The translations under genes were made by a program, and so were the position numbers. From positions 281,542,001 to 281,606,000 of the forward strand of contig OZ024741.1 in NCBI GenBank assembly GCA_964016885.1: a stretch of 64,000 bases of DNA. Direction: 5' to 3'. Positions within the stretch are counted from its first letter, which is position 1; each line of letters opens with the position of its first letter. Below are positions 10,780 to 61,049 of the stretch, piece after piece. This stretch comes from Eledone cirrhosa. Taxonomy: Eukaryota. The notes below the pieces were generated by a model. It saw nothing but the letters and a program-made list of their open reading frames with translations. It was not told where the DNA came from and ran no database searches.

Positions 10780-10969
10780 AAGGGTGGTGGATTGGCAGTA
10801 TCGGTAGAGGGTCGGACGCCATGCTTTGCAGCACAGTTACGTCCCTTTACGGACTGAGTTCAAATCCCGCCGAGGTTAACTTTGCCTTTCATCCTTACAG
10901 GGTCGATAAAATAAAGTACCAGTAATGCACTGGGTAATTGCTGGCCTCGTGCCTAAAGTAGAAACAATT
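10780..10969 (+). mobile_element. Full-length family A SINE with 14-bp TSD
   Basis: ATTTGTTAGAGCAT at both 10766-10779 and 10970-10983. Confidence 0.92.
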
Positions 10970-10999
10970 ATTTGTTAGAGCATTAAACACTCTTCTTCG

Positions 11000-11468
11000 C
11001 GGCACATAGTTATAGCCTTTTACGTTTTGAGTTCAAATCCTGCCAAAGTTAGCTTTACAAGGACGATAAAATAAAGTACCAGTTACACACTGAGGTTAAT
11101 TTGATTGATCCCCCCCCCCCAAAAAAAAATCTACTGTCCTTGTGCCTAAATCAGAAGCCATTATTATACATTTACGTTCTGAGTTCAAATTCTGCTTAGG
11201 TTAGCTTTGCCTTTCATCCTTATGGAGGTTGATAAAATAAAGTACCAGTAATGAACTGGGGTCGATTTAATTGACCTTCCCCTCCCCCAAAATTGCTGGT
11301 TTTGTACCTAAATCAGAAACCATTATTATACAATTACATTCTGAGTTCAAATTCCGCTATAGGTTAGCTTTGACTCTCTATCTTTATGGGGGTTAACTGG
11401 CATCGATTTGTTCAACTTTTCTTTTCCCTTCAAGTTGCTGGCCTTGTGTCAAAGGTAGAAACAATTAT
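11000..11468 (+). mobile_element. Three tandem head-truncated family A SINE units
   Basis: Repeated TAC(G/A)TT(C/T)TGAGTTCAAAT...TTGTG/ACC...AGAA.C.ATTATT units of about 130-170 bp. Confidence 0.8.
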
Positions 11469-13934: not shown

Positions 13935-14440
13935 TATGTTGGTACAAACACACACTAGAAAAAGTGTCAGAGAATGACAAAGCAACCGTTCTCTGGGATA
14001 TGCCAATACATACAGACAGAGAGATCAAAGCCAACCAACCAGATATTATAGTCAATGACTACAAATAAAAAGAATGCTTTCTAATAGATGTATCAATCCC
14101 CACAGATGACAATATATCTTCCAAGGAAATAGAGAAACTCTCCAAATATAAAGATTTAGAGATAGAAATAACTTGAATGTGGCAAATGAAAACAGAAACA
14201 ATACCTATGATAATAGGTGCTCTAGGAATGATAAAAAAAAAACACACAGACAAATACATAGCCAAAACCCCAGGACTTACAAATATATACAGCATACAAA
14301 AGGTAACACTACTAGGCACTGCACACATATTACGAAAAATACTATCAATACAATAGAAAGAACATCAGCAAAAACTACACTGCACATACCCAAGGCACAC
14401 AGAGCTGTGCTCGGTAAAACAGTAATGATGTGCAATAAAA
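13935..14440 (+). mobile_element. R4/Dong-like RLE 3' fragment ending in (AAT)n
   Basis: Encodes WYKH..VLWDMPIHTDREIKANQPDII..FLIDVSIP..EKLSKYKDLEIEI..IPMIIGALG..QKVTLLGTAHILRK. Confidence 0.9.
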
Positions 14441-14702
14441 ATAATAATGGAAATAATAATAATAATTGAAATAATGCTTTCTTTATTAACCACAAGGGTC
14501 TACATAAAGTAGACATTAAGGACAGTGCAGGACAATACAGCACAGTACAAATGGGCATTTCTGAGTGTAAAAAAAAAATAATGAAAAATTCCTCAATAGG
14601 GGGGGAGACTTCGGAGGGACATTTGTGGAGAAAGCCAATTAAAAGGCCACAGTGACCCTGACCACCAAGGCAAGTGCCCTCTCCCAGTTTTCCACCTTTA
14701 AT

Positions 14703-17700
14703 TTACAGACACATACTCAGAGTAGGCCCATTCACTCGGGCCATTCTTGCTTCTCTCACCCATCTTTCAACAAAATGCTGGGAAGAGAGCACTTCCCTCT
14801 CTACTCTGATTTTCCTTTTCAAATGAAATTTGAAAAAGTCAATCAGGGCATCACTGAAGAGGTAAGTGCTCGTCTTCAGCCCTTTCAAACGTGTCCACCA
14901 TACTATCTCTTTTGCCATGGCCACCAGACAGATAAAAACTGCCTGCCCTTCCCTGCTAAAGGAAGAGGGCGGGGCAATCCTCACGATGGACTCAGCTGAT
15001 AGCCGGATCCGTCCTACACGCGACAGCAAGTGTTCGACATAAACCCACAAGTCAGCAATTTTCGGACACTGGACGAGTGCGTGCAGGACGGTTTCGTCGC
15101 CCTGCGCGCATCTTGGACATGCCCGGCTGACGGCACCTCCATGCTTGTAGAGTTTATCCCGAACTGCCAAGGCTCCTCGGTAGCACTGCCAGGCCAGGGA
15201 TTTCTGGAAGTTGTCCATAGGCCCCGGCCCGAAAGTTCTTCCGAAGAGATTGGCTAGTTGATTTTCGTCGCCGCCTAGAGGTTCCCCAAGTACGTCGTCG
15301 CTCTTCCCCTCCACTAATCCTCTATAGAACGCTGAGGTGGAGTTTCCACCGATCACATTGCCCGATTGGTCGAGGGCTGTGAGCGCCTGAAGACATTCCA
15401 GTCTCCAAGCGCTCCCTCTCGGTCTTCGCTTGACCCAGGACTGCAGCTCCGTCAAGGTAACGAGCTGGGGAAAGACGTGTCTAGCAAACGGCGACCACAC
15501 CTGATCACCGTCGAGGAAGAGGTGGAGATGTCGTAGCCTGAGCGCGTGTCTGCACATCATCAGCCACGGCATGCCCAGCCCTCCACGTAGCGGGTGTTGA
15601 CAACAGATGGACCGCCTGACCATCGGGGCGCATCCCTTCCACAAAAAGCGAAAGAGCAAACGCTCCAGCGCAGTCGGGCGGGGCTTAGGACAAGGTACGA
15701 CGGTCAGGCGGTAGCAGATGACAGACGCGATGTACGCGTTAGTCACCTCTGCTCGCCCTTTCAGGGATAGCTTCCTCTCCGCCCATTTCTGGGTGAGAGA
15801 AGCCACCCTGCTCATCAGCTCGTCCCAGTTTTTGTCCGTCTGGAGGTCCGGACCGAACCAGACCCCTAGCAATTTAACCGGTCCGTCCATCCAGCACCCG
15901 ACGACGTTGTTGGACGGCATGGACCTGCCTCTCCAGGTGCCGAGCTGCAGGCCTACTGATTTTTCCTGGTTGATCATTGCTCCTGTCACCGCTTCGTATT
16001 CTCTTAGTGTAGTGCCGATCGCCTCAATGTATTTGGCGTTCGACACCACTACGGTGACATTGTCCGCATATGCTGACATGGATCTTCCGCATCCTAGTTT
16101 GCGCAGGACGCCCCTCAACGTCTCTAGTTTGTGCAGTAATGGCTCGAGAGTCAATACGTACAAGAGGGACGAGATGGGACATCCTTGGCAGACCGAGCGC
16201 ATGATGTTGAACGGTTCCGAAAGGTGACCGTTCACTCTCACCACAGAGCAGATGTCGCTGTGCATGGCAGCGATCCAGCCTCTGAAGATGGGCCCAAAGC
16301 CAGCCGCTCTCAGGACTGCCGCTAGGTAACGATGGTCGACCCTATCAAAAGCTTTCGACTGATCTAAATTGATCAAGGACCCACCCGTGCCAGGTTCCCT
16401 AGCAACCCTCTCTACGATGTATCGCATGAGGTGGAGGTTGTCGTGGATGGATCTGTCTGGAATGGCGCATGTCTGCGCCTCTCCCACCAGACCACCAACG
16501 ACAAGCACCAACCTCTTTGCTAGCACCTTGGCCAAAATCTTGAACTCTGTGTTTAGCAGAGTTATGGGCCTGAAATTATCTATGTTATCCCCCTTGTTCG
16601 GATCACAGAGTTGGGAATTATCCCGTTCTGTTGCCAGTTCCAGTAGACGTCCACCAAGAGGCCTCCGAACAAGTCTGGCATTTGTACGTAAAGTTCATAG
16701 GGCAGACCATCCAAACCAGGCGATTTACCCCTTGTGCAGCCGGTCATTGCCTCCCCTACTTCAGCAGCTGTTATCGGCTTTTCGCAACACTCTGCCTCAG
16801 TGGCCGAGAGCCGCGGCAGTTCGTCGAGGTAGACACTAAAGTCCATCCCTCGATCCGGCCCGCTGCTGCCTCCGAACAGTTGAGCGAAGTGTCGCTGAAA
16901 AGCTTCACACATTTGCCCGGGATCGAGTAGCATGCGCCCGTCGTGGTCCACCAAAGACCGGATCGTGGCTTTGTTGCTACAACGCGCCTCCGCCACTCAG
17001 GCCCATTGAACGGCTTTCATCCCCTCGTGTCTGAGAGCACGCACCCTTGCTCTGACAACGCAGCCTTCGTGCTTTGCATTGAAGAATTGGTCAAGGGCCA
17101 ATTTCGCCGCAAGTACGTCGGTCGCGATGCCTTTGCTAAGCGCCTCGTCTAATTTTCTAACTAGTTCTCCCTCTGCTCTATTTTTCTCTATAGCTAAAGC
17201 CTTACTAAACCTAATGGACTCTATTCTAATCGCTCTTTTCAGAGCAAACCACCACTTGTTGTTGACGATGGCCCCCGTCAACGCTCACTTAACTAGTTCA
17301 CTAATGCTGTCTCTGTGGGCCTTGCGTGCTGGTAAGGACGCGTTTAGCTTCCAGTAGCCGGGTCCTCGTCTATGAAGCCTATCTAAGTCAAGCACACAGA
17401 TCACGAATTTGTGGTCCGTGTAGCTGACTATCTTGAATTGTGGACAGCTTATGCTAGACCTATCTATTTCCCTACAAAATACTCTATCTAGATATGATCT
17501 GGATGAGCCGATGCGATTTGTCCACGTCCACATTGGCACATTCGGGAAATCCAATTGGTACCTGTCAGACAGTTCAAAACGCCTGAGCAGGTTGGTGAGG
17601 CTCTTGCACCCTCCTCCCCTATCCGCTAATCCCACACAGTCCCAGCGTGCATCTAAGATCCCATTCCAGTCGCCCACTAACACTAAAGAGCTGGACGGTC

Positions 17701-18092
17701 CTAGAAAGGTCTCCAGACGCCGGAAGAAATCAGGCCGCCCTGCTCCTGTCGGGGCATAGACAGCCACTAGCCTGAAAGCTTGCCCTTCTCCGCTGGTCAT
17801 GTCCAGCACCACCAATTTACCTTCTGGGTCCAGGAAGATGGCCCGTATGGCGAGATCCAAACCTCTCCGAAAAAGCACAGCAACTCCTCCTCCCGATCCA
17901 GGACGGCTGGGAGATGCATACACATCGTAGCCGCCGAAGATCATTGCGAAAGGCCCGTGCTCCGGAGATTCTGGTCTCGCTGATGGCCACTACATCTATG
18001 TTTAGTGACCCGAGGTCGTTGAGCAGGTGGCCCTGCTTCCATGACGACCCCAAGCCACGCGCATTTATGCTGCCTATTCTGAGTGAGGTCAT
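14703..18092 (-). pseudogene. Tx1 ORF2: APE endonuclease, reverse transcriptase and C-terminal zinc finger
   Basis: SINARGL, VYAP, GDWN, LDRVF, TDHK, GPGYWKLN; KSPGLDGLPYE, LDQSKAFDRVDH, QGCPISSLLY, YADN; CPRCAQGDETVLHALVQC. Frameshift near 17944, stops near 17285 and 16997, deletion/frameshift near 16600. Confidence 0.93.
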
Positions 18093-18126
18093 GTTGGAAT
18101 GGAGTGGAAAAGATGGGAAAGACCAC

Positions 18127-19448
18127 TTACCTTACTTCTCGCAGAGGAAGGATGGTTTCACCATCCCTTTTCACTTGATCGTCTGGTGAAGGGACCGTTG
18201 AATCGCCCCTTTGGCTGGTCGTCGGCTCTTCTGTGAGTATATCTGAATATACCCTCCGGTTGAGTGTCCCTCCTAGGTCTCTGAAATCACCAACTGCGTT
18301 GGGGAATTTCGTTTTAATGTTTGTGTATTGTTTCTGTGCTATTCTTACCAGTCTTATGTTCGTTGGTGTTTTGATTGGTGCTGGTATTATGTAGTCGTGC
18401 TGTGAAATGTCTGTGTGTTCAATTATGTAAGTCATTAGTTTCTTGTTGTGTGTATTTATTGCCGTGCATTTGTTTTTCTGGGGGTGGGGTGTGGTTCTGC
18501 TATTTTCTTGTCGTTGTTGCTGGGTGTGTGTGTTTTGTTGTTGTGTTTGCGATGTTAGTGCTTGTGGTGGTGGTGTTGAAGGTGTTGTTGTTGTTGGCGG
18601 TGGGGTTGTCGCCGGTGGTGATGGTGGTGCTAGTGTGGGTGGTGATGGTGTTGGTGGTGTTGCTGCTGTGAGTCTCTTTGCAGTAGCCTTTACCCTTTTT
18701 TCATTTCTTTCCTCCCTTTTCGAAGGCGACGATGCACTGCTTCTGCGTTTGTGCCTTCTTGCGACCTTTTGTCATCCCTCTCCCACCTCACACTCCATGT
18801 CTGATTCTGTGAGGTCGGGGAGGGGTACCAGCTCCACTCTTTCACTTGTTGTTGTTGGTGATGTTTGCAGTGGAGTCTCTGTTGCAGCTGCAGTTGGTAT
18901 TACTGTTGTTGTTAATACGTCCACTGCTGCTGCTGTTCTTGATTTCCGTGGCGTGGGTATGGGTGCCACGGACCTATCGTTCCTGGTTTCTGCTTGTCCT
19001 GTTGCTGGTAGCAGTGGAGCCGGTTTCGGAAGGAGGGGGGTTTTCTCCTTTCTCAGGGTCTTCTCATTGCAGAAGGCCCTGAGGTGAGTTTTCGATCCAC
19101 AGTGAAAGCATTTCGGGCGTTTGCCCTCAACACTTATGGGCAGTTGAGTGCCGTTATCAAAGTCTATCACATCCAGGATAGCTTCGATGCACTCCTGGTT
19201 GGTTTGGATTAACATCTCAATGGAGGTGCCGACCCAATCTTCTCGTACTTTTCGGCTGCCTTGCAGATTGCTCGGTGTACGGTTTTCGTCACCATCTTCT
19301 TTGCTTCCTGTAATTCCTCATTTGTTATAAGGATTGTTTCCAGGTTCTTTGTGATACCTGCAAACGAGATTGGTTTTTCTTTGTTGTTGTCGTCGTCAGA
19401 GCTGTTGTTACTTTTGTTGTTGCTGCTGGTACTACGACTGCCGCCGCC

Positions 19449-19481
<33 letters not shown>

Positions 19482-19676
19482 GCTAATGCTGTTGTTGTTT
19501 ATGCTGCTGCTGATGCTGTTGCGGCTGCTACTGTTGTTTTCCCTGTCACTGTTGCTGCTGCTGCTGTTATTACGGCTGCTACTGCTATTATTTATGACGT
19601 CGGACAAATGAAATGGGTTTCGGTATTTACCGCACACATTTTTTGTCGTTGTCGTCGTCGTGGAGAAATGTTCCAT
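18127..19676 (-). pseudogene. Tx1 ORF1 (gag-like nucleic-acid-binding protein), broken
   Basis: CFHCGSKTHLRAFC (CX2CX4HX4C), SFAG motif, Ser/Asn- and Thr/Pro-rich linkers; split across ORFs 19209-19877, 18772-19215 and 18127-18435. Confidence 0.8.
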
Positions 19677-20077
19677 GTTTTGCACGTGATCTTGGAAACT
19701 ATCAGAAATTTTGTTTTCTTTATTGGCGTCGCTTGCGAAAGAGAAGGGAGGTAGAGAGACAATCTTCTCTCTGGTGTAGTGACGATTGAGGAAGAAGAAG
19801 ACGGAATGAGTGGGAGTGACTTGTGAAAATTTTTTTTTGTAGCCAATTTTTTTTGGTTTAAAATAAATATTGGGCACAAAACCCCAATAAGCGGTTATTT
19901 AACCCCGAAGGGCCAAATAACGGACAGAAAGACCCCTCTCGCGAGGAGGAGGGTGTTTTTGTCTACAATTTGGTTAAAGTTTTAAACAATTTACCATTGT
20001 TATAGCGGTTAAAATTTACTATACCTTACAGAGCCGAGCCTCCGTCAACCATGGCATTCAATAATAATAATAATAAT

Positions 20078-20732
20078 GATTTCTTTATTGGCCACAAGGG
20101 CTGACATCAAGAAAAACATTACAGACGGTACGATGTGGGTTTTGTGCGTGTAAATATTTTCATTATTTATATAAGAAAAGAAAAAAAGGACATAGAAACA
20201 TATATATATATATAAACAATAAAAATGAAAATTGAAACAATGAAAAATTCCCCAATAGGGGGGAAACCTCCGAGGGTTACTCGTGGTGAAAACCACACAA
20301 AAGACCACGGCCACCCTGACCACCAGGGCAAGCGCCCTCTCTCAATTTTTCAATTTCTCAAACTACAGATGTATATTCAGAGTGGTCCCGTTCACTCGGA
20401 CCATTCTTGCTACATTCACCCACCTTTCAACAAACTTGCTAGAAGGCAAGTGAAACTTGAAAAAGTTAATTAGGGATTCGCCGAAGAGGAAAGTGTCTGT
20501 CTTTAACCCTTTTAACCATGGCCACCAGGCAGATGAAAACCGCCTGCCCTTCCTCCTCGAAGGAAGACGGCGAGGCCATCTGCACAATGGACTCAGTCGA
20601 CAACCAGATCAGTCCTACATAGCTCCACAAGTCAGCAATGCTCGGGCACTGAACGAGTGCGCGCACGACGGTTTCGTCGCTTGCGTGCATCTCGGACAGG
20701 CACGGCTGATGGCACTTCTGTGCCTGTAGAGC
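20078..20732 (-). mobile_element. 5'-truncated sister Tx1 copy (ORF2 C-terminus and 3'UTR)
   Basis: Encodes DETVVRALVQCP..EGQAVFICLVAM..FVERWVNVARMVRVNG; homologous to 14476-15150. Confidence 0.9.
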
Positions 20733-20753
20733 AATAATAATAATAATAATAAT

Positions 20754-20966
20754 TATGGTTTCTGGTTTAGGCACAAGGCCAGCGATTTTTTTGGGGGGCG
20801 GGGGTCGATTAAAACGACCCAGTGCATTACTGGTACTTTATTTTATCGACCCCCGTAAGGATGAAAGGCAAAGCTAACCTCGGCGGGATTTGAACTCAGA
20901 ACTCAGGGCCATAATGCTATGCTGCGAACCATGTTCATTGCTCTACCGATACTGCCAATCCACTGT
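20754..20966 (-). mobile_element. Family A SINE flanked by (AAT)n on both sides
   Basis: Full head-to-tail homology to the 10780 copy. Confidence 0.9.
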
Positions 20967-21200
20967 ACTAATAACAATAACAAAATAATAATAATAATAA
21001 TAAACCAAGAGAATTAGTACATTTAACCTTTTCTTCACAGTAAAAGACAGAACTTTGACATTTTCCAACAGTGATAGAATAGAAGCACACATTGAGCAGC
21101 CACAATCTAAATGTAAATCAGAAGAAGGCTACATTTTTATAAGTAAAAACATAGCTAAAGAATGTAATTAACACGTTGTTAGCATGATATATTTTCTTAC

Positions 21201-23333: not shown

Positions 23334-26300
23334 ATCATCATCATCATCATCGTTTAACGTCCATGTTCTATGCTTGCATGGGTTTGGACGGGAGTTTTCC
23401 CACTTGAGGCAAGAGTGGTTGTCTTGCTTGCATAGGACTGTCTGGCGGGTTTTCTACAGCTGGATGCCCTTCCTAACACCAACCACATTTACAGTGTGGG
23501 GCTGGGCGGTTTTTACCGTGTTGCCTACACGGCCACATTACAGCGTGGACTGTCTGGTGGGTTTTCTACAGCTGGATGCCCTTCCTAACACCAACCACAT
23601 TTACAGTGTGGGACTGGGAGGTTTTTACCGTGTTGCCTACACGGCCACATTACAGCATGGACTGTGTGTTTTTTGTCGTGACACCTACACGATCTCATTT
23701 GTTTCGGCCTGGATGTTGTGGCACCAACATAACTTTACATTGAAAGGGGCGGTGTGGATGGGGTGGGGGTGGTGTATTTTGTTAGAGATGCCTACTGACT
23801 GTAGTAGGTTTTACTTTGTATTTAGGTAAGGCGGGTCTTCTCTATTACTGAGTACCGCCAAAGGTCTCGGTCCAGTGACATTGTCTTGGAGAGGTGTAAG
23901 TGTGTGAGGTCGGAATTTATCAGCTCGTCCCAGGTTTTTCTGGATCTGCCTACTCCGTGGCTACCGTCTATCTTTATTGCCCTGCACTTTGTTATACAGC
24001 TGTCGTCTTTCATTCGCATCACGTGACCATACCAACGTAGCCTTCTCTCGATTAAACAACATCTGATCCCTCTTATTTCTAATTTTTTCCTTAGTTCGTT
24101 TATGCTTTGCCGTTCACGTATATTACTATTACACATCCAGTGGAGCATGCAAGCTTCGTTCCTCTCTAGTCTGCGTATATCCTCTGCACACAATGCCCAG
24201 GTCTCACTGCCATGCAACATTGCTGTTCGTATGCAGGCATCATACAACCTGCCTTTCATTTTTAGGGTGAACCCTTTAGCGGCTAATAGTGGTATAAGCT
24301 CTCTGAACTTTTTCCATCCAGTTCTGACTCTAGCTACTGTACTTTCAGAGCACCCTCCCCCACTGCTGATTTTGTCACCCAGGTAACGGAAGCTGTCCAC
24401 TATTTCTATAGAACCCTCTGCGCAATTGAAAGAGCTAGTATTCTGTGGGCACTTGCTGCTACTTATTGCACCAGAGCACCGGCCACATGTAAAATCTGTG
24501 TTCTTAGTTAGCTTACCTGTGATCCCACTACATCTTTTATGCACCCATACTTTGCATTTGGGACATAAAATGGAGTTTCTACCTACGCCTTTCCTACACA
24601 CTGAGCATGGCCATTTCCCGGAAGGGACCAGCGCCTTATTTTCTTTCCTACAAACTAGAACTTTAGTCTTAGCCAGGTTAATTTTAAGGCCTTTTGATTC
24701 TAGGCCGTGCTTCCATGTTTGGAATTTCTTCTCTAGCTCGGCCATTGATTCAGCTATGAGCGTTAGATCATCTGCGTATAGGAGTTCCCATGGGCAGCCG
24801 GTCTTGAACTCCTCTGTTATAGCCTGAAGGGCAATAATAAATAGTAGGGGGCTAAGAACAGAACCCTGATGGACACCAACTTTTACGCTAAACTCTTCAC
24901 TATATTCGTTGTTAATTCTAACCTTGCTGACTGTTTCTTTATACATGGCTTGTATAGCTCTCACAAGCCATTCGTCAACACCTAGTTTTCTAAGAGCCCA
25001 CCAGATAATGGAACGGGGGACTCTGTCGAAGGCTTTCTCCAAGTCGACAAAAGCTAAGTATAGGGGTTTACTTTTAGCTAGGTACTTCTCCTGTAGTTGT
25101 CGTACAATGAAAAGAGCGTCTGTGGTACTTTTGCCTGACACAAACCCGAACTCCATTTCATCTAGATCAATTCTCTCTCTGATTAGTTGCGCTATTACTT
25201 TTTCCGTGACCTTCATGACCTGGTCGATTAATTTAATGCCTCTATAGTTACTCCTATCTAGGGCGTCTCCTTTACCCTTGTAACAGTTAACGATGATGCT
25301 GCTACGCCAGTCCTTCGGAACAACCCCATTCTGTATGACTTGGTTTACTATCCGGGTGACCATGGTGTGTCCCACCGTTCCAGAGGCTTTCAGCATCTCA
25401 GCAACTATTTCCGAAGGCCCAGCCGCCTTACCCGTCTTCATATCTTTGATTGCCTTACTTATTATACTACCTTCGACTAACACTGCTGGTCCCTCTATTG
25501 GGTCGATGTGGGGGAGACTGTCTTTCTCCCATTTATTCTCCTCATTTAGTAGCCTTTCGTAGTGACACTTCCAAGCTACCTTCTTATCAGCGTCAGTGAT
25601 GGCAAGTACGCCATCATCGTTAAGTACACACTTCTCCCAGACAATATCACGGTTTTCCTTGACACATTGCCTAGCAATCCTGAACACCTCACGTTTTTGG
25701 TCCTCGCGTTGTAGAACATGCTTGAACTTTCTTTCCTCTGCTTCCCTTCTTGCGAAGTACACTTGTCTCCTAGCTTCCCTCCTGGCCACTTGATAGTCTT
25801 CTCTACTTCCCCCATCCCGCCATGCTTTCCAAGCCTGCTTTTTGGCCTTGATTGACCCCTCCACCTTACTGTTCCACCACCATGTTACTCTCCTCCTGCC
25901 TACAGGCCTGCTCCAGCCACAGACTTTGTCTGCCGCCATCAGCAGGTTTGCTTTCAGGAATTCCTACTGTGCCTCTACCATGTACGACTAATTGCTCTTC
26001 CTTACTGTCGAAAGCATCAAGTAATATGCTTTTAAATTTATTTCTGGCTGTGGGATCCTTTAGCTTCCATATTTTTCTCCTGAGGATAGTCCTCTTCTGC
26101 TGTCTAGTACGTCTCGTCCTGACTATGAGGTCGCTAATTATCAGTCTATGTTGGGCGGTGCATTCTTCATGGGGGAGGGATTTAGTGTTTACAACAGACA
26201 CTCTGTCACGTCTTCTGGTAAGGATATAATCTACCTGGCTGGTATGTTCCCCTGATCTGTAGGTGATCAAGTGATTGTCTCGTTTTTTGAAGTTAGTGTT

Positions 26301-26818
26301 ACAGATAGTTAGGTTGTTTGCATCACAGAATTCCAGGATTCTGGCGCCTTCCTCGTTTCTAGTACCAAACCCATAGCCTTCGTGGATTCCATCATAGCCG
26401 TCACAATGTTGTCCAACGTGGCCATTTAGGTCGCCAGCAATAATTATATAGTCACTGTCGGTTATTTGGGAGGTAGTGAGCATCAGTGTCTCATAGAATC
26501 TGTCTTTTATAGCGCCAGGCAGTCCGGATTGGGGCGCGTATGCAGATATTACTGTCACAGTAGTTCTGTTTAGAACAAGTCTTATTTTAATTATTCTGTC
26601 ATTCACTCTATTTACATCTATTATCTTATCCACCCATTTTTCTGCTAACATGATTCCTACCCCACCTATCCCATTGTCATTTCCCACCCAGAAAAGCTTA
26701 TAGCAACGTTTTTTACCCACAATGAATCTAGCAGACCCGCCCCTCCACCTGGTCTCTTGGATACAGCAAACATCAACCTCCTTACGTTCAAGCAATTCTA
26801 CAACCTCATTAGAGCGGC
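23334..26818 (-). mobile_element. RTE-clade LINE, nearly complete ORF (APE + RT), 5'-truncated within APE
   Basis: CCIQETRW, SAYAPQ, GDLNGHVG, QVDYIL, AQHRL; NYRGIKL, FVDLEKAFDRV, QGSVLSPLLF, YADD, FRYLG; one stop/frameshift near 25960; 3'UTR and (GAT)n tail. Confidence 0.95.
23822..25939 (-). CDS. RTE reverse transcriptase portion (705 aa open frame) with embedded C4HC3 finger
   Basis: ORF track; canonical RT motifs. Confidence 0.85.
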   Translation of the reverse strand: MAADKVCGWSRPVGRRRVTWWWNSKVEGSIKAKKQAWKAWRDGGSREDYQVARREARRQVYFARREAEERKFKHVLQREDQKREVFRIARQCVKENRDIVWEKCVLNDDGVLAITDADKKVAWKCHYERLLNEENKWEKDSLPHIDPIEGPAVLVEGSIISKAIKDMKTGKAAGPSEIVAEMLKASGTVGHTMVTRIVNQVIQNGVVPKDWRSSIIVNCYKGKGDALDRSNYRGIKLIDQVMKVTEKVIAQLIRERIDLDEMEFGFVSGKSTTDALFIVRQLQEKYLAKSKPLYLAFVDLEKAFDRVPRSIIWWALRKLGVDEWLVRAIQAMYKETVSKVRINNEYSEEFSVKVGVHQGSVLSPLLFIIALQAITEEFKTGCPWELLYADDLTLIAESMAELEKKFQTWKHGLESKGLKINLAKTKVLVCRKENKALVPSGKWPCSVCRKGVGRNSILCPKCKVWVHKRCSGITGKLTKNTDFTCGRCSGAISSSKCPQNTSSFNCAEGSIEIVDSFRYLGDKISSGGGCSESTVARVRTGWKKFRELIPLLAAKGFTLKMKGRLYDACIRTAMLHGSETWALCAEDIRRLERNEACMLHWMCNSNIRERQSINELRKKLEIRGIRCCLIERRLRWYGHVMRMKDDSCITKCRAIKIDGSHGVGRSRKTWDELINSDLTHLHLSKTMSLDRDLWRYSVIEKTRLT

Positions 26819-27667
26819 CCAAATGCAAAGTATGGGTGCATAAAAGATGTAGTGGGATCACAGGTAAGCTAACTAAGAATATAGATTTCATATGTGGCCA
26901 GTGCTCTGGTGCAATAAGTAGCAGCAAGTGCTCACAGAATACTAGCTCATTCCATTGCACAGATGGTTCTATAGAAATAGTGGACACCTTCCGTTACCTC
27001 GGTGACAAAATCAGCAGTGGTGGAGGGTGCTCTGAAAGTACAGTAGCTAGAGTCAGAACGGGATGGAAAAAGTTCAGAGAGCTTATACCACTATGTCATG
27101 TGATGCGCATGAAAGACGACAGCTGTATAAAAAAGTGCAGGGCGATAAAAATAGATGGTAGCCACGGAGTAGGCAGACCCAGAAAAACCTGGGACGACTT
27201 GATAAATTCCGACCTCACACACTTACACCTCTCCAAGACAATGTCACTGGACCGAGATCTTTGGCGCTACACAGTAATACAGAAGACCCACCTTACCTAA
27301 GTACAAAGCGAAACCTACAGTCAGTAGGCACCTCTAACAAAATACCCCCTCCCCCGTCCCACTACGCCTTTCAATGTAAAGTTATGTTGCTACCACACCA
27401 TCCAGTGCGAAACAAATGAGGTCGTGTAGGTGTCACGACAAAAAAAAACACACAGTCCATGCTGTAATGTGGCCGTGTAGGTAACACGGTAAAAACCTCC
27501 CAGTCCACACTGTAAACGTGGTTGGTGTTAGGAAGGGCATCCAGCCGTAGAAAACCCGCCAGATAGTCCTATACGAGCAAGACAACCAATCTTGCCTCAA
27601 GTGGGAAAATTCCCATCCAAACCCATGCAAGCGTGGAAGATGGACGTTAAACGATGATGATGATGAT
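26819..27667 (+). mobile_element. 3' piece of the interrupted RTE copy (internal deletion near 27092)
   Basis: Resumes at CCAAATGCAAAGTATGG; ends in (GAT)n. Confidence 0.92.
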
Positions 27668-45282: not shown

Positions 45283-47420
45283 AGTGGTGGGAGGTGTTGA
45301 GCTAGTGGTGGTGGTGGGAGGTGTTGAGCTAGTGGTGGTGGTGGGAGGTGTTGAGATAGTGGTGGTGGGAGGTGTTGTGGTAGCGTGAGGTGTTGAGATA
45401 GTGGTAGCGGGAGGTGTTGAGATAGTGGTAGCGGGAGGTGTTGAGATAGCGGGAGGTGTTGTGATAGTGGGAGGTGTTGTGATAGTGGGAGGTGTTGTGA
45501 TAGCGGGAGGTGTTGTGATAGTGGTAGCGAGAGGTGTTGAGATAGTGGTAGCGGGAGGTGCTGTGATAGTGGTAGCGGGAGGTGTTGAGATAGCGGGAGG
45601 TGTTGAGATAGCGGGAGGTGTTGAGATAGCGGGAGGTGTTGAGATAGCGTGAGGTGTTGAGATAGTGTGAGGTGTTGAGATAGTGTGAGGTGTTGAGATA
45701 GTGTGAGGTGTTGAGATAGTGTGAGGTGTTGAGATAGTGGTAGCGAGAGGTGTTGAGATAGTGGGAGGTGTTGAGATAGTGGGAGGTGTTGAGATAGTGT
45801 GAGGTGTTGAGATAGTGTGAGGTGTTGAGATAGTGTGAGGTGTTGAGATAGTGGGAGGTGTTGAGATAGTGGGAGGTGTTGAGATAGTGTGAGGTGTTGA
45901 GATAGTGTGAGGTGTTGAGATAGTGTGAGGTGTTGAGATAGCGTGAGGTGTTGAGATAGTGGGAGGTGTTGAGAGTGTGGGAGGTGTTGAGAGTGTGGGA
46001 GGTGTTGAGATAGTGGGAGGTGTTGAGATAGTGGGAGGTGTTGAGATAGTGGGAGGTGTTGAGATAGTGGTGGTGGGAGGTGTTGAGAGTGGGAGGTGTT
46101 GAGATAGTGGGAGGTGTTGAGATAGTGGTAGTGTGAGGTAGAGGTAGTGGTAGGTGTTGTGATAGTGGGAGGTGTTGAGATAGTGGTAGTGGGAGGTGTT
46201 GTGATAGTGGGAGGTGTTGTGATAGTGGTAGTGGGAGGTGTTGTGATAGTGGTAGTGGGAGGTGTTGTGATAGTGGTAGTGGGAGGTGTTGTGATAGTGG
46301 TAGTGGGAGGTGTTGTGATAGTGTGAGGCATTGAGAGAGTGGGAGATGTTGAGAGAGTGGGAGGCGTTGAGAGAGTGGGAGGCGTTGAGAGAGTGGGAGG
46401 CGTTGAGAGAGTGGGAGGTGTTGAGAGTGGGAGGCGTTGAGAGAGTGGTAGTGGGAGGCGTTGAGAGAGTGGTAGTGGGAGGCGTTGAGAGAGTGGTAGT
46501 GAGAGGCGTTGAGAGAGTGGTAGTGAGAGGCGTTGAGAGAGTGGTAGTGAGAGGCGTTGAGAGAGTGGTAGTGAGAGGCGTTGTGATAGTGGTAGCGTGA
46601 GGCGTTGTGATAGTGGTAGCGTGAGGCGTTGTGATAGTGGTAGCGTGAGGCGTTGTGATAGTGGTAGCGTGAGGTGTTGTGATAGTGGTAGCGTGAGGTG
46701 TTGTGATAGTGGTAGCGTGAGGTGTTGAGATAGTGGTAGCGTGAGGTGTTGAGATAGTGGTAGCGTGAGGTGTTGAGATAGTGGTAGCGTGAGATGTTGA
46801 GATAGTGGTAGCGTGAGGTGTTGAGATAGTGGTAGCGTGAGGTGTTGAGATAGTGGTAGCGTGAGATGTTGTGATAGTGGTAGCGTGAGATGTTGTGATA
46901 GTGGTAGCGTGAGGTGTTGTGATAGTGGTAGCGTGAGGTGTTGAGATAGTGGTAGCGTGAGGTGTTGTGATAGTGGTAGTGTGAGGTGTTGTGATAGTGG
47001 TAGCGTGAGGTGTTGTGATAGTGGTAGCGTGAGGTGTTGTGATAGTGGTAGCGTGAGGTGTTGAGATAGTGGTAGCGTGAGGTGTTGAGATAGTGGTAGC
47101 GTGAGGTGTTGAGATAGTGGTAGCGTGAGGTGTTGAGATAGTGGTAGCGTGAGGTGTTGAGATAGTGGTAGCGTGAGATGTTGTGATAGTGGTAGCGTGA
47201 GGTGTTGTGATAGTGGTAGCGTGAGGTGTTGAGATAGTGGTAGCGTGAGGTGTTGTGATAGTGGTAGCGTGAGGTGTTGTGATAGTGGTAGCGTGAGGTG
47301 TTGTGATAGTGGCAGCGTGAGGTGTTGAGATAGTGGCAGCGGGAGGTGTTGAGATAGTGGCAGCGGGAGGTGTTGAGATAGTGGCAGCGGGAGGTGTTGA
47401 GATAGTGGTAGTGGGAGGTG
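45283..47420. repeat. 18/24-bp minisatellite (GGTGTTGAGATAGT[GGTAGC]GTGA)
   Basis: About 2.1 kb tandem array with blocks of variants. Confidence 0.97.
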
Positions 47421-47688
47421 TGATTAGTGGGAGTTATATTAGTTTTCCTATCTTAAGAGAAAAGATAGCTGACAGAAATTTCAGCTGTGCCTATCAGCAG
47501 AGCATTAGAGAATACAATAATCATTTTGTCTAGATCATTAGTGTGAATTAAATGAACATTATAGAGTATAAATAACACTCAAGACTGACTTTATATATGA
47601 ACTTTGTCAGTTAACTACTACTGAAATTGGAGCTGACCTGACAGACTCCTGTCGACTGGCTACTTTGCTACATTTTAAAGGTGTTTAA

Positions 47689-55029: not shown

Positions 55030-56020
55030 ATACAGACACACGTGTATATATACATATATATATATACACTCATATGTATACACAGACACACGTGTATATA
55101 TACATATATATATATATACACTCATATATGTATACACAGACACACGTGTATATATACATATATATATATACACTCATATATGTATACACAGACACACGTG
55201 TATATATACATATACACTCATATATGTATACACAGACACACATGTATATATACACACTCATATATGTATACACAGACACACGTGTATATATATATACATA
55301 CACTCATATATGTATACACAGACACACGTGTATATATACATATATATATATATACACTCATATATGTATACACAGACACACGTGTATATATACATATATA
55401 TATATACACTCATATATGTATACACAGACACACGTGTATATATACATATACACTCATATATGTATACACAGACACACATGTATATATACACACTCATATA
55501 TGTATACACAGACACACGTGTATATATATATACATACACTCATATATGTATACACAGACACACGTGTATATATACATATATATATATATACACTCATATA
55601 TGTATACACAGACACACGTGTATATATATATATATGTATATATACACGTGTGTCTGTGTATACATATATGAGTGTATATATATATATATGTATATATACA
55701 CGTGTGTCTGTGTATACATATATGAGTGTATGTATATATATATACACGTGTGTCTGTGTATACATATATGAGTGTGTATATATACATGTGTGTCTGTGTA
55801 TACATATATGAGTGTATATGTATATATACACGTGTGTCTGTGTATACATATATGAGTGTATATATATATATGTATATATACACGTGTGTCTGTGTATACA
55901 TATATGAGTGTATATATATATATATGTATATATACACGTGTGTCTGTGTATACATATGAGTGTATATATATATATGTATATACACTCATATATGTATACA
56001 CAGACACACATATACATATA
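55030..56020. repeat. ~40-50-bp CACGTG-containing minisatellite with an internal inversion
   Basis: Unit TATACACAGACACACGTG(TA)nCACTCATATATG; orientation flips near 55632 and again near 55975. Confidence 0.93.
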
Positions 56021-56024
56021 TATA

Positions 56025-57304
56025 AACGAAGCTGGCAAGCTCCGCTGGATGTGTAATAGTAACAGACGTGAACGGCAAAGCATAAACGAACTAAGGAAAA
56101 AATTAGAAATAAGAGGGATCAGATGTTGTTTACTCGAGAGAAGGCTACGTTGGTATGGTCACGTGATGCGCATGAAAGACGATAGCTGTATAACAAAGTG
56201 CAGGGCAATAAAGATAGACGGTAGCCACGGAGTAGGCAGACCCAGAAAAACCTGGGACGACCTGATAAATTCCGACCTCACACACTTACACCTCTCCAAG
56301 ACAATGTCACTGGACCGAGACCTTTGGCGGTACTCAGTAACAGAGAAGACCCAACTTACCTAAATACAAAGTGAAACCTACTACAGTCAGTAGGCATCTC
56401 TAACAAAATACTCCCACGTCCCACCACCCCGACCCCATCCACACCGCCCCTTTCAATGTAAAGTTATGTTGGTGCCACAACATCCAGGCCGAAACAAATG
56501 AGATCGTGTAGGTGTCACGACAAAACACACAGTCCACGCTGTAATGTGGGCGTGTAGGCAACACGGTAAAAACCTCCCAGCCCCACACTGTAAATGTGGT
56601 TGGTGTTAGGAAGGGCATCCAGCTGTAGACAACCCGCCAGACAGTCCACGCTGTAATGTGGCCGTGTAGGCAACACGGTAAAAACCTCCCAGCCCCACAC
56701 TGTAAATGTGGTTGGTGTTAGGAAGGGCATCCAGCTGTAGAAAACACGCCAGACAGTCCACGCTGTAATGTGGCCGTGTAGGCAACACGGTAAAAACCTC
56801 CCAGCCCCACACTGTAAATGTGGTTGGTGTTAGGAAGGGCATCCAGCTGTAGACAACCCGCCAGACAGTCCACGCTGTAATGTGGCCGTGTAGGCAACAC
56901 GGTAAAAACCTCCCAGCCCCACACTGTAAATGTGGTTGGTGTTAGGAAGGGCATCCAGCTGTAGAAAACACGCCAGACAGTCCACGCTGTAATGTGGCCG
57001 TGTAGGCAACACGGTAAAAACCTCCCAGCCCCACACTGTAAATGTGGTTGGTGTTAGGAAGGGCATCCAACTGTAGAAAACCCGCCAGACAGTCCACGCT
57101 GTAATGTGGTCGTGTAGGCAACACGGTAAAAACCTCCCAGCCCCACACTGTAAATGTGGTTGGTGTTAGGAAGGGCATCCAGCTGTAGAAAACACGCCAG
57201 ACAGTCCTATGCGAGCAAGATAATCACTCTTGCCTCAAGTGGGAAAACCCCCGTCCAAACCCATGCAAGCGTGGAACACGGACGTTAAACGTTGATGATG
57301 ATGA
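56025..57304 (+). mobile_element. 5'-truncated RTE LINE inserted in the minisatellite
   Basis: Encodes LRWMC...RRLRWYGHVMRM...TEKTQLT*; 3'UTR; (GAT)n tail. Confidence 0.95.
56530..57201 (+). repeat. Six tandem 112-bp units inside the RTE 3'UTR
   Basis: CAGTCCACGCTG starts at 56530, 56642, 56754, 56866, 56978 and 57090. Confidence 0.95.
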
Positions 57305-57972: not shown

Positions 57973-58149
57973 TACAGATAATCAAGAGAAAAATATCAAA
58001 ATAATCAAAGCACATATGTAGTGTGAGTACTTGAAGGGTGTTCTGTAGTTAATAGTATTAAAGCTAAGTAAAGTTAATCCAGAAGTGGGAAGAAGACACA
58101 TTGGCTCTTCCATTACAACTGCAAATAACAATAATACTTTCAAGGGGGA

Positions 58150-60857
58150 GGGGAGATAAAGAGAGATGGAGGGAGATAGAGGGAGGTGGTGAGAGAGAGA
58201 TAGAGGGAGGTGGTGAGAGAGAGATAGAGGGAGGTGGTGAGAGAGACAGAGGGTGGTGAGAGAGAGGGGGTGGAGAGGGAGGGGTGGAGAGGGAGGGGTG
58301 GAGAGAGGGAGGTGGAGAGAGAGACACAGAGGGAGGTGGAGAGAGGGGGGGTGGAGAGAGAGGGGGTGGAGAGAGAGGGGGGTGGAGAGAGAAAGAGGGA
58401 GGTGGAGAGAGAAATAGAGGGAGGTGGAGAGAGAAATAGAGGGCGGTGGAGAGAGAAATAGAGGGAGGTGGAGAGAGAAATAGAGGGAGGTGGAGAGAGA
58501 AATAGAGGGAGGTGGAGAGAGAAATAGAGGGAGATGGAGAGAGAAATAGAGGGAGATGGAGAGAGAAATAGAGGGAGATGGAGAGAGAAATAGAGGGAGA
58601 TGGAGCGAGAAATAGAGGGAGGTGGTGCGAGAGATAGAGGGACATGGGGAGAGAGATAGAGGGACATGGTGCGAGAGATAGAGGGAGGTGGTGCGAGAGA
58701 TAGAGGGAGGTGGTGCGAGAGATAGAGGGAGGTGGTGCAAGAGATAGAGGGAGGTGGTGCGAGAGATAGAGGGAGGTGGTGCGAGAGATAGAGGGAGGTG
58801 GTGCGAGAGATAGAGGGACATGGTGCGAGAGATAGAGGGACGTGGTGCGAGAGATAGAGGGAGGTGGTGCGAGAGATAGAGGGACATGGGGAGAGAGATA
58901 GAGGGACATGGGGAGAGAGATAGAGGGAGGTGGTGCGAGAGATAGAGGGACATGGGGAGAGAGATAGAGGGACATGGGGAGAGAGATAGAGGGACATGGG
59001 GAGAGAGATAGAGGGAGGTGGTGCGAGAGATAGAGGGACATGGGGAGAGAGATAGAGGGACATGGGGAGAGAGATAGAGGGACATGGGGAGAGAGATAGA
59101 GGGAGGTGGTGCGAGAGATAGAGGGAGGTGGTGCAAGAGATAGAGGGACGTGGTGCGAGAGATAGAGGGACATGGGGAGAGAGATAGAGGGAGGTGGTGC
59201 GAGAGATAGAGGGAGGTGGTGCGAGAGATAGAGGGAGGTGGAGAGAGAGATAGAGGGAGGTGGAGAGAGAGATAGAGGGAGGTGGAGAGAGAGATAGAGG
59301 GAGGTGGTGCGAGAGATAGAGGGACATGGGGAGAGAGATAGAGGGAGGTGGTGCGAGAGATAGAGGGACATGGGGAGAGAGATAGAGGGAGGTGGTGCGA
59401 GAGATAGAGGGAGGTGGTGCGAGAGATAGAGGGAGGTGGAGAGAGTGATAGAGGGAGGTGGTGCGAGAGATAGAGGGAGGTGGTGCGAGAGATAGAGGGA
59501 GGTGGTGCGAGAGATAGAGGGAGGTGGTGCGAGAGATAGAGGGAGGTGGTGCGAGAGATAGAGGGAGGTGGTGCGAGAGATAGAGGGAGGTGGTGCAAGA
59601 GATAGAGGGAGGTGGTGCAAGAGATAGAGGGAGGTGGTGCAAGAGATAGAGGGAGGTGGTGCGAGAGATAGAGGGAGGTGGTGCGAGAGATAGAGGGACA
59701 TGGGGAGAGAGATAGAGGGAGGTGGTGCGAGAGATAGAGGGAGGTGGAGAGAGTGATAGAGGGAGGTGGTGCGAGAGATAGAGGGAGGTGGTGCAAGAGA
59801 TAGAGGGAGGTGGTGCAAGAGATAGAGGGAGGTGGTGCGAGAGATAGAGGGAGGTGGTGCGAGAGATAGAGGGACATGGGGAGAGAGATAGAGGGAGGTG
59901 GTGCGAGAGATAGAGGGACATGGGGAGAGAGATAGAGGGAGGTGGTGCGAGAGATAGAGGGAGGTGGTGCGAGAGATAGAGGGAGGTGGTGCGAGAGATA
60001 GAGGGAGGTGGTGCGAGAGATAGAGGGAGGTGGTGCGAGAGATAGAGGGAGGTGGTGCGAGAGATAGAGGGAGGTGGTGCGAGAGATAGAGGGAGGTGGA
60101 GAGAGTGATAGAGGGAGGTGGTGCGAGAGATAGAGGGAGGTGGAGAGAGTGATAGAGGGAGGTGGTGCAAGAGATAGAGGGAGGTGGTGCAAGAGATAGA
60201 GGGAGGTGGTGCAAGAGATAGAGGGAGGTGGTGCGAGAGATAGAGGGAGGTGGAGAGAGAGATAGAGGGAGGTGGTGCGAGAGATAGAGGGAGGTGGAGC
60301 GAGAGATAGAGGGACATGGGGAGAGAGATAGAGGGAGGTGGGGAGAGAGATAGAGGGACATGGGGAGAGAGATAGAGGGAGGTGGTGCGAGAGATAGAGG
60401 GAGGTGGTGCGAGAGATAGAGGGAGGTGGTGCGAGAGATAGAGGGAGGTGGTGCGAGAGATAGAGGGAGGTGGAGAGAGAGATAGAGGGAGGTGGAGAGA
60501 GAGATAGAGGGAGGCGGTGCGAGAGAGGGAGGCGGTGCGAGAGATAGAGGGAGGTGGTGCGAGAGATAGAGGGACATGGGGAGAGAGATAGAGGGACGTG
60601 GGGAGAGAGATAGAGGGACGTGGGGAGAGAGATAGAGGGACGTGGGGAGAGAGATAGAGGGACATGGGGAGAGAGATAGAGGGACATGGGGAGAGAGATA
60701 GAGGGACATGGGGAGAGAGATAGAGGGACATGGGGAGAGAGATAGAGGGACATGGGGAGAGAGATAGAGGGACATGGGGAGAGAGATAGAGGGACATGGG
60801 GAGAGAGATAGATGAAGGTGGAGAGAGAGAGATGAAAGTGGAGAGAGAGATAGAGGG
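58150..60857. repeat. 22-bp purine-rich minisatellite (GAGAGATAGAGGGAGGTGGTGC / GAGAGATAGAGGGACATGGGGA)
   Basis: About 2.7 kb tandem array with two interspersed major variants. Confidence 0.97.
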
Positions 60858-61049
60858 AAAAGTAAACAGAAAGAAAGTAAGCAAATAATACAGTACTATG
60901 AATATATGTATTAGTTTAACGCTAGTAGGAAAATAGTCTTAATGTATCAGACGCTAGACTTTCTTCAGTAGATAGAATTGCTGGGGTAGGAGTGATGAGG
61001 TGAAAAGGCATTTGTGTGTTCAGTGAGCCATAGGTAACACACACACACA

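Follow-up and report, generated by a model that had tools for sequence, protein, structure and literature searches.

Tx1-type LINEs favor ATT-repeat sites in the octopus Eledone cirrhosa and, with an associated SINE, lie in same-strand trains

Why retroelements of different families should lie one behind another, set off from each other by (AAT)n, is the question raised by positions 13935–21003 of a 64,000-nucleotide stretch of the Eledone cirrhosa genome (positions 281,542,001–281,606,000 of OZ024741.1, a 416-Mb contig in a 3.0-Gb assembly; hereafter the window). The chain comprises the 3' end of an R4/Dong-like long interspersed nuclear element (LINE), a long and a truncated Tx1-type LINE, and a short interspersed nuclear element (SINE). 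The original prediction, made from the letters of the window, proposed that a Tx1 lineage inserts strand-specifically into (ATT)n and that every insertion leaves a new target, so that trains build up from a Dong tail. Re-inspection upheld the order, coordinates, and orientations of the elements and confirmed that both Tx1 copies and the SINE, all three on the minus strand, are flanked by (AAT)n on both sides. The reading favored here, with a probability of roughly 0.72, is that the chain consists of separate retrotransposon copies, belonging to two Tx1-type subfamilies and a SINE, which would have been inserted in one orientation in ATT repeats by a Tx1 endonuclease nicking Y^ATTAT(T) (Y, pyrimidine). 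What the sequence shows are flank statistics, orientation, duplications, a shared 3' end, and a sister relationship between families.

Three head types, A1, A2, and B, were recognized among the ATT-associated copies. Genome-wide, 2,291 of 2,369 exact A1 heads (96.7%) and 2,090 of 2,240 exact A2 heads stand directly after in-phase ATTATTATT, against a background of three in-phase ATT units before 0.021–0.023% of random positions, and at least four perfect ATT units precede the head in 70 of the 72 full-length A/B copies examined. Beyond the ATT tract, 40 A1 copies taken in order along C1 adjoin Tx1 3' ends (13), SINE ends (five), (CTT)n (three, always with (ATT)n at the junction), and other DNA (19). 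The tally of 5' flanks suggested by the original prediction finds ATT enriched far above background, but it is partly circular for full-length copies, because one of them brought its own 5' (ATT)12. This full-length A2 copy (L139, 1806–6870 in element orientation) lies inside a SINE, where a 19–20 bp duplication is followed by (ATT)12 and then by the head, and uninterrupted SINE copies (81 alignments, some from overlapping loci) have no ATT tract at the host site. Since L139 carries its own repeat, the 5' (ATT)n of full-length copies was rejected as sufficient proof of targeting. Full-length RNAs likely carry an (AUU)n 5' leader, which would fit the exact phase of full-length junctions as opposed to the ragged junctions of truncated copies.

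Copies truncated at the 5' end cannot carry a leader and therefore provide an independent test. Two in-register ATT units occupy the last 12 nt in 23 of 44 best-hit truncated A/B copies (background 1.24%, p = 2e-32), compared with three of the same 44 in an opposite-strand control. A sample of 60 3' ends taken in order along C1, in which four previously collected ends were skipped and one pair lay on a shared stretch, yielded 19 truncated A/B copies after exclusion of L274, a member of a divergent subfamily, and of three copies without a reference. The 12-nt rule holds for six of these 19 (background 1.3%, p = 1e-7), and ATT lies within 28 nt of the junction in nine (background 3.8%). Truncated A/B copies adjoin ATT at about 25–40 times the background, and in one of them (L032) a 22-bp duplication spans the ATT repeat and reaches into unique DNA. 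Strand-specific insertion into (ATT)n is thus seen genome-wide as a preference, in heads and truncated copies alike, but not as an absolute rule, given that 10 of the 19 unbiased truncated copies have no ATT nearby. Several ATT-less truncated copies (L044, L109, L142, L155) adjoin an older copy at its 3' end, the tail of that copy having been lost; some ATT-less junctions are probably internal deletions, and others are unexplained. Copies at L033, L044, L142, and L155 abut, with nothing in between, a short Tx1 3' piece or a tail-less older end, an arrangement that may reflect either a template jump or loss of the target.

The SINE points to a shorter site than a microsatellite. Its last ~25 nt align without gaps to the Tx1 3' ends, and the same end is shared by two further families, D and E. 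Of 28 SINE ends in 400 kb of arbitrary DNA, 23 are matched upstream over at least 11 nt (one to four in shuffled pairs), and 19 of these 23 duplicated sites begin with ATTAT. Three perfect ATT units are present at only five of the 23, so the target is likely a short motif and not necessarily a microsatellite. Among the collected loci, 133 distinct SINE ends gave 40 informative duplications. An anchor was possible for 36 of them, and 28 of these did not follow immediately on another element. A pyrimidine stands just ahead of the motif at 27 of these 28 sites, compared with 53% at genomic ATTAT (p = 6e-7), and the duplications measure 12–23 bp in 35 of 36. The working target is likely Y^ATTAT(T) on the top strand, equivalent to 5'-AATAAT/R on the nicked strand. 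The recognized site was originally given as (ATT)n; the preference for ATT stands, but the site itself is more probably this short motif, which is densest in (ATT)n tracts. The SINE displays the features of a LINE-partnered SINE, namely a 3' end shared with Tx1 and an ATT-type insertion signature, and likely uses the A/B proteins, judging from its tail, orientation, and motif. It gave no transfer RNA match with ARAGORN or Rfam and no small nuclear RNA match, and folding of 3' ends produced weak hairpins and no structure shared with the SINE. Tandem SINE arrays, in which target duplications starting with ATTAT are repeated between the units, were observed at 10787–11393 of the window and at L173 and L179.

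Families D and E, which came up in the same sample along C1 and end in (TATC)n, are associated with TATC instead of ATT. TATC precedes the head in 23 of 25 D copies, and ATT precedes it in none (background for TATC 0.43%; five of the 30 loci had no recognizable head). Truncated D/E copies adjoin TATC in 10 of 15 cases and ATT in one, none of the 19 truncated A/B copies adjoins TATC, and three truncated D/E copies have 11–19 bp duplications. A/B and D/E are sister groups (support 100/99), with reverse transcriptase (RT) regions 63–76% identical. In the proposal of one Tx1 lineage that targets (ATT)n, the link to ATT holds for A1, A2, and B, but several subfamilies are involved and their sisters use TATC. 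The two sets of families likely differ because each enzyme cuts its own short motif. The tip of the endonuclease hairpin loop reads TNRIGSSRS in A/B and T/ANRSGTSRS in D/E; this loop is described as shaping target choice in L1 (PMC1950540), and the difference may be taken as a lead to the cause of the ATT/TATC split. D/E copies bounded on either side by (TATC)n were observed at L263, L275, L272, L285, L296, and L331–L360, where they also form trains within one another's tails.

The same-strand trains expected from the window are borne out genome-wide. Among the first 100 A1 heads on C1, all 13 neighboring pairs within 7.5 kb have both members in the same orientation (expectation 0.8). The 134 distinct A/B tails examined, a sample with a bias toward Tx1-rich loci, are followed by 32 Tx1 heads, 11 sense SINEs, one antisense SINE, six copies of another recurring sequence, 28 Dong-like ends, all antisense and none sense, and 56 other sequences. 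The recurring sequence starts in sense right after (ATT)n behind the tails of L182, L192, L131, and L281 and is likely the head of a further family. Random DNA contained two Dong-like 3' ends, both with (AAT)n tails and both meeting a Tx1 end tail-to-tail, and at least three types of 3' end of LINEs with a restriction-like endonuclease (RLE) were seen tail-to-tail with Tx1 tails (L146, L128, and window 13935–14439). That a Dong tail seeds the trains, as was originally supposed, is possible at this locus but was not borne out as a rule, as trains were also seen behind the tails of SINEs and of other Tx1 copies and behind (CTT)n(ATT)n tracts.

The intact natural copy L215 has an open reading frame (ORF) 1 of 697 amino acids and an ORF2 of 1139. 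Pfam identifies Exo_endo_phos, RVT_1, and zf-RVT in ORF2 and nothing else, corresponding to an apurinic/apyrimidinic endonuclease (APE), an RT, and a C-terminal CCHC motif without RNase H. The Pfam scan of ORF1 gave no passing match; a CX2CX4HX4C knuckle is visible in it, Atlas matches of 0.91–0.93 lead to CCHC/ZCCHC3-type clusters, and TX1-named fish relatives have the same ZCCHC3 domains. The layout of ORF2 together with a separate ORF1 fits the Tx1 clade of the L1 group. Both ORFs are open in 12 of 40 sampled A1 copies, with a median pairwise identity of 98%, and a 21-nt motif shared at the 3' end is found 16,285 times in exact form in the genome, TATC families included. Among named proteins, the RT region is closest to one from Argonauta hians (70% identity), and an Octopus sinensis record is matched by a fragment. 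The deep nodes of a quick RT tree, which included the zebrafish "transposon TX1 149 kDa" protein and no L1 reference, stayed open, and zebrafish BAC82621.1 and Takifugu Q76B34 (35–36% identity), presumably Kibi and Koshi proteins, did not cluster with the octopus lineage in it. Sister to the octopus lineage are the ORF2 protein clusters P0005, P0009, P0128, and P0133 (up to 732 members, 44–53% identical). A2 has the same 3' part as A1 and a different 5' part; in L123 compared with L129/L130, ORF2 and the 3' end are common (94–97%) and the 5' regions are unrelated, which suggests replacement of the 5' end. Further ATT-tailed Tx1-like 3' ends, from family C and others, were noted at L009, L021, L137, L138, L251, L273, L284, and L327.

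The individual parts of the window chain can be read against this background. It opens on the plus strand with the 5'-truncated 3' end of the Dong-like LINE (13935–14439), for which the RLE-like motif PD..ECFLIDV..K..KY was seen by eye, two stops interrupt the frame, and the R4/Dong clade is our presumptive assignment. A first look gave 2,979 genome candidates for this piece, the best other copies being 93% identical, and no (AAT)n was found at its own truncated 5' end. The adjoining (AAT)n at 14440–14475 exists as predicted but is imperfect, and it is largely the tail of the Dong-like LINE, because part of the same imperfect motif recurs behind another Dong-like end (L251); the tract is common, tail-to-tail, to this LINE and to the Tx1 copy that follows. 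That copy (14476–20059, minus strand, subfamily A1), described originally as full, does have both ends, but it is broken: it is 94.5% identical to L215, lacks ~370 bp, and has frameshifts and 2 + 2 stops compared with that intact copy. Its ORF2 lies at ~18092–14703, with Pfam matches to Exo_endo_phos, RVT_1, and zf-RVT, and its ORF1 at ~19850–18127. The (AAT)6 at 20060–20077 is at once the tail of the next copy and the in-phase 5' flank or leader of the A1 copy. The next copy (20078–20732, minus strand) is indeed a 5'-truncated Tx1, but of a different subfamily, B, only 69% identical to the long copy over their overlap; it aligns to the last ~750 bases of full-length B (84% with gaps), and a first look gave 2,442 genome candidates. 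The (AAT)7 at 20733–20753 is the tail of the SINE and likely the insertion site of the truncated B copy, in keeping with the excess of ATT beside truncated copies. The SINE (20754–20969, minus strand) belongs to an abundant family that is likely mobilized by these LINEs, given the CCTTGTG...AGAAA..ATTATT end that it shares with Tx1 and the duplications starting with ATTAT. On its 5' side, an AAT-rich tract (20970–21003) may be left over from the original target tract or from a Dong-like tail.

A simple tandem duplication was ruled out as the origin of the chain, because its parts belong to different families. The best relatives of the four parts are 93–97% identical, a spread too narrow to order the insertions, and the sequence of the locus is present in four contig sets of unspecified type. 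Elsewhere in the window, RT-bearing LINE copies at 23822–27300, 277–1036, and 55908–56363, presumably RTE-like, have a PHD finger match and an upstream APE-like frame and lie near (GAT)n/(TCA)n. Long minisatellite arrays at 45289–47421 (units of 18–27 bp) and ~58000–60900 contain stop-free frames of 700–970 codons, which are likely not genes.

We propose that Y^ATTAT(T) would be encountered most densely in (ATT)n tracts, those left as tails by earlier insertions among them. The bottom strand would be nicked at 5'-AATAAT/R-3', and reverse transcription would be primed by the nicked 3' end once it pairs with the (AUU)n terminus of the RNA. Complementarity between tail and primer is also a feature of L1 and Alu. 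A second nick, usually 12–23 nt downstream, would produce the duplication and, when placed at or before the first, none or a small loss. Transcription of a full-length RNA probably begins within the upstream (ATT)n, which would then serve as its leader and give the exact in-phase 5' junction, and trains would grow in one orientation because each insertion leaves a new (ATT)n at its end. The SINE may borrow the Tx1 machinery through the shared 3' end, and D and E may act likewise with TATC. The tail-to-tail meetings with Tx1 would arise because ATT repeats also serve the Dong-like LINE, on the opposite strand. In this scheme, the nick positions, the RNA pairing, the transcription of the leader, the dependence of the SINE, and the role of the endonuclease are inferred from sequence.

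Several observations weigh against this reading. By the rule used, 10 of the 19 unbiased and 21 of the 44 best-hit truncated copies show no ATT signal at the junction. Informative duplications are rare in truncated copies (3 of 63), and in full-length copies an automatic search found two in 72, compared with three to four in shuffled pairs; L194 and L269, full-length copies with one-unit tails, show no target duplication. The nick motif was derived from SINE sites, and the SINE is linked to Tx1 by ~25 bases that also occur in D and E. The leader is deduced from one copy, L139, together with the contrast between full-length and truncated junctions. Two of seven neighboring pairs (L183/L184 and L192/L193) are each other's closest copy. 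This last point bears on the idea that trains are due chiefly to read-through co-retrotransposition or unequal recombination and not to fresh insertion into tails. L183/L184 also have a common interrupted tract, L139 demonstrates that upstream sequence can be carried along, and the B fragment and A1 copy of the window could be one read-through cDNA. In the other five of the seven pairs, however, the neighbors rank only third to 15th of 34 in closeness, which suggests separate insertion for most trains, with local duplication or read-through possible for some. Trains also mix A1, A2, B, SINE, and antisense Dong, and isolated truncated copies and SINEs have the motif too, which makes this origin improbable as the main one.

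A less improbable alternative, though still an unlikely one, is that the target is set mainly by pairing between RNA and DNA, a relaxed endonuclease nicking at many T/purine steps, priming being confined to sites whose 3' end can pair with the repeat tail of the element, and a newly acquired tail repeat bringing a new target. Every family has one and the same repeat as its tail and as its target, the SINE needs only ~5–6 matching bases, the hairpin loop is nearly alike between ATT and TATC families, and loop grafts in L1 altered nicking profiles without transferring specificity (PMC1950540). The pyrimidine at −1 in 27 of 28 SINE sites would, however, lie outside the pairing with the RNA tail, which argues against pairing alone setting the target; the D/E endonucleases, ~55–64% identical to that of A1, leave room for change at the protein level, and the Tx1L endonuclease is reported to be sequence-specific in vitro (PMC1950540). 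It is hardly credible that Tx1 inserts without preference, the ATT at its ends being its own tail and leader while all targeting falls to the Dong-like LINE, which would seed or join the clusters. TAA repeats are reported as a target of Dong (PMC3812793), both random-DNA Dong-like ends meet Tx1 ends, and the leader that this account needs was seen once, in L139. It is largely refuted by the leaderless truncated copies and the SINE data; Tx1–Tx1 and SINE–Tx1 junctions without Dong are common (18 of 40 A1 heads), and only one of 136 tested copies lies inside a repeat at a non-ATT site, an event detectable only when the host is a repeat of the collected set. An extension of the favored reading can be offered as a tentative and rather doubtful idea: the octopod Tx1 lineage may partly program its targeting through RNA, with the flanking repeat at both transcript ends pairing with the target at both junctions, sister families may have needed few changes in the endonuclease to exchange ATT for TATC (or the reverse), and the ATT families may have been the motor of a major octopus SINE expansion.

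Tx1 families that target microsatellites are already described, Kibi and Koshi in fish and crocodilian families in (TTCC)n/(TTTC)n (PMC4494074; PMC3812793). The Eledone families resemble them as APE-type Tx1-like LINEs with a strong microsatellite preference; where more than 20% of flanks is taken to denote target specificity (PMC4494074), the values here are 93–97% of heads and 32–52% of truncated copies. In contrast to the pyrimidine-rich (TC)n, (TTC)n, (TTCC)n, and (TTTC)n of those systems, the targets in this cephalopod are (ATT)n and (TATC)n, the target feature of Kibi and Koshi was not found, and the scale is considerable, with thousands of heads and the above 16,285 exact 3' ends across related families. 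Dong, of the R4 clade, targets (TAA)n in Bombyx, Anopheles, and Biomphalaria (PMC3812793). The microsatellite is thus the same, but the Tx1 endonuclease is APE and the Dong-like neighbor has an RLE-like motif, and Tx1 tails are (ATT)n whereas Dong-like tails are (AAT)n, on the opposite strand. The crocodilian SINEU is mobilized by Tx1-Mar (PMC4494074) and likewise shares a target preference with a Tx1 family and forms tandem insertions; the Eledone SINE differs in that its link is a shared 3' end and a microsatellite-type motif, with no match to small nuclear RNA. Human L1 and Alu, which target 5'-TTTT/AA (PMC1950540), are similar in an APE hairpin loop of equal length, a short motif, and duplications of ~12–23 bp, and differ from the Eledone elements in that the latter have an (ATT)n tail instead of poly(A), a putative nick at 5'-AATAAT/R, and an in-phase repeat at full-length 5' ends. 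The accessible text of octopus repeat studies lists L1-Tx1, Dong-R4, and SINE families without targets (PMC13282606; PMC8967140; PMC4758252; PMC4824008; PMC2684134). The literature covered, which stops short of Repbase, Dfam, and the figure and supplements of PMC4494074, describes no ATT- or TATC-targeting Tx1 and no targets of octopus Tx1; the two targets are apparently new, and Repbase or Dfam could hold a prior description.

The mechanism of microsatellite targeting is regarded as "not well understood" in a review (PMC3812793), and how APE-type retrotransposons gain or switch targets is an open question, on which sister families with different targets in one genome bear directly. Their young intact copies would allow the contributions of endonuclease and RNA tail to be separated by swaps and offer a natural test of target change. 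SINEs make up 11.6% of the O. vulgaris assembly (PMC13282606), and the A/B families are a likely partner LINE for an abundant octopus SINE. Through insertions such as those described here, cephalopod genomes may also accumulate ATT tracts and repeat clusters.

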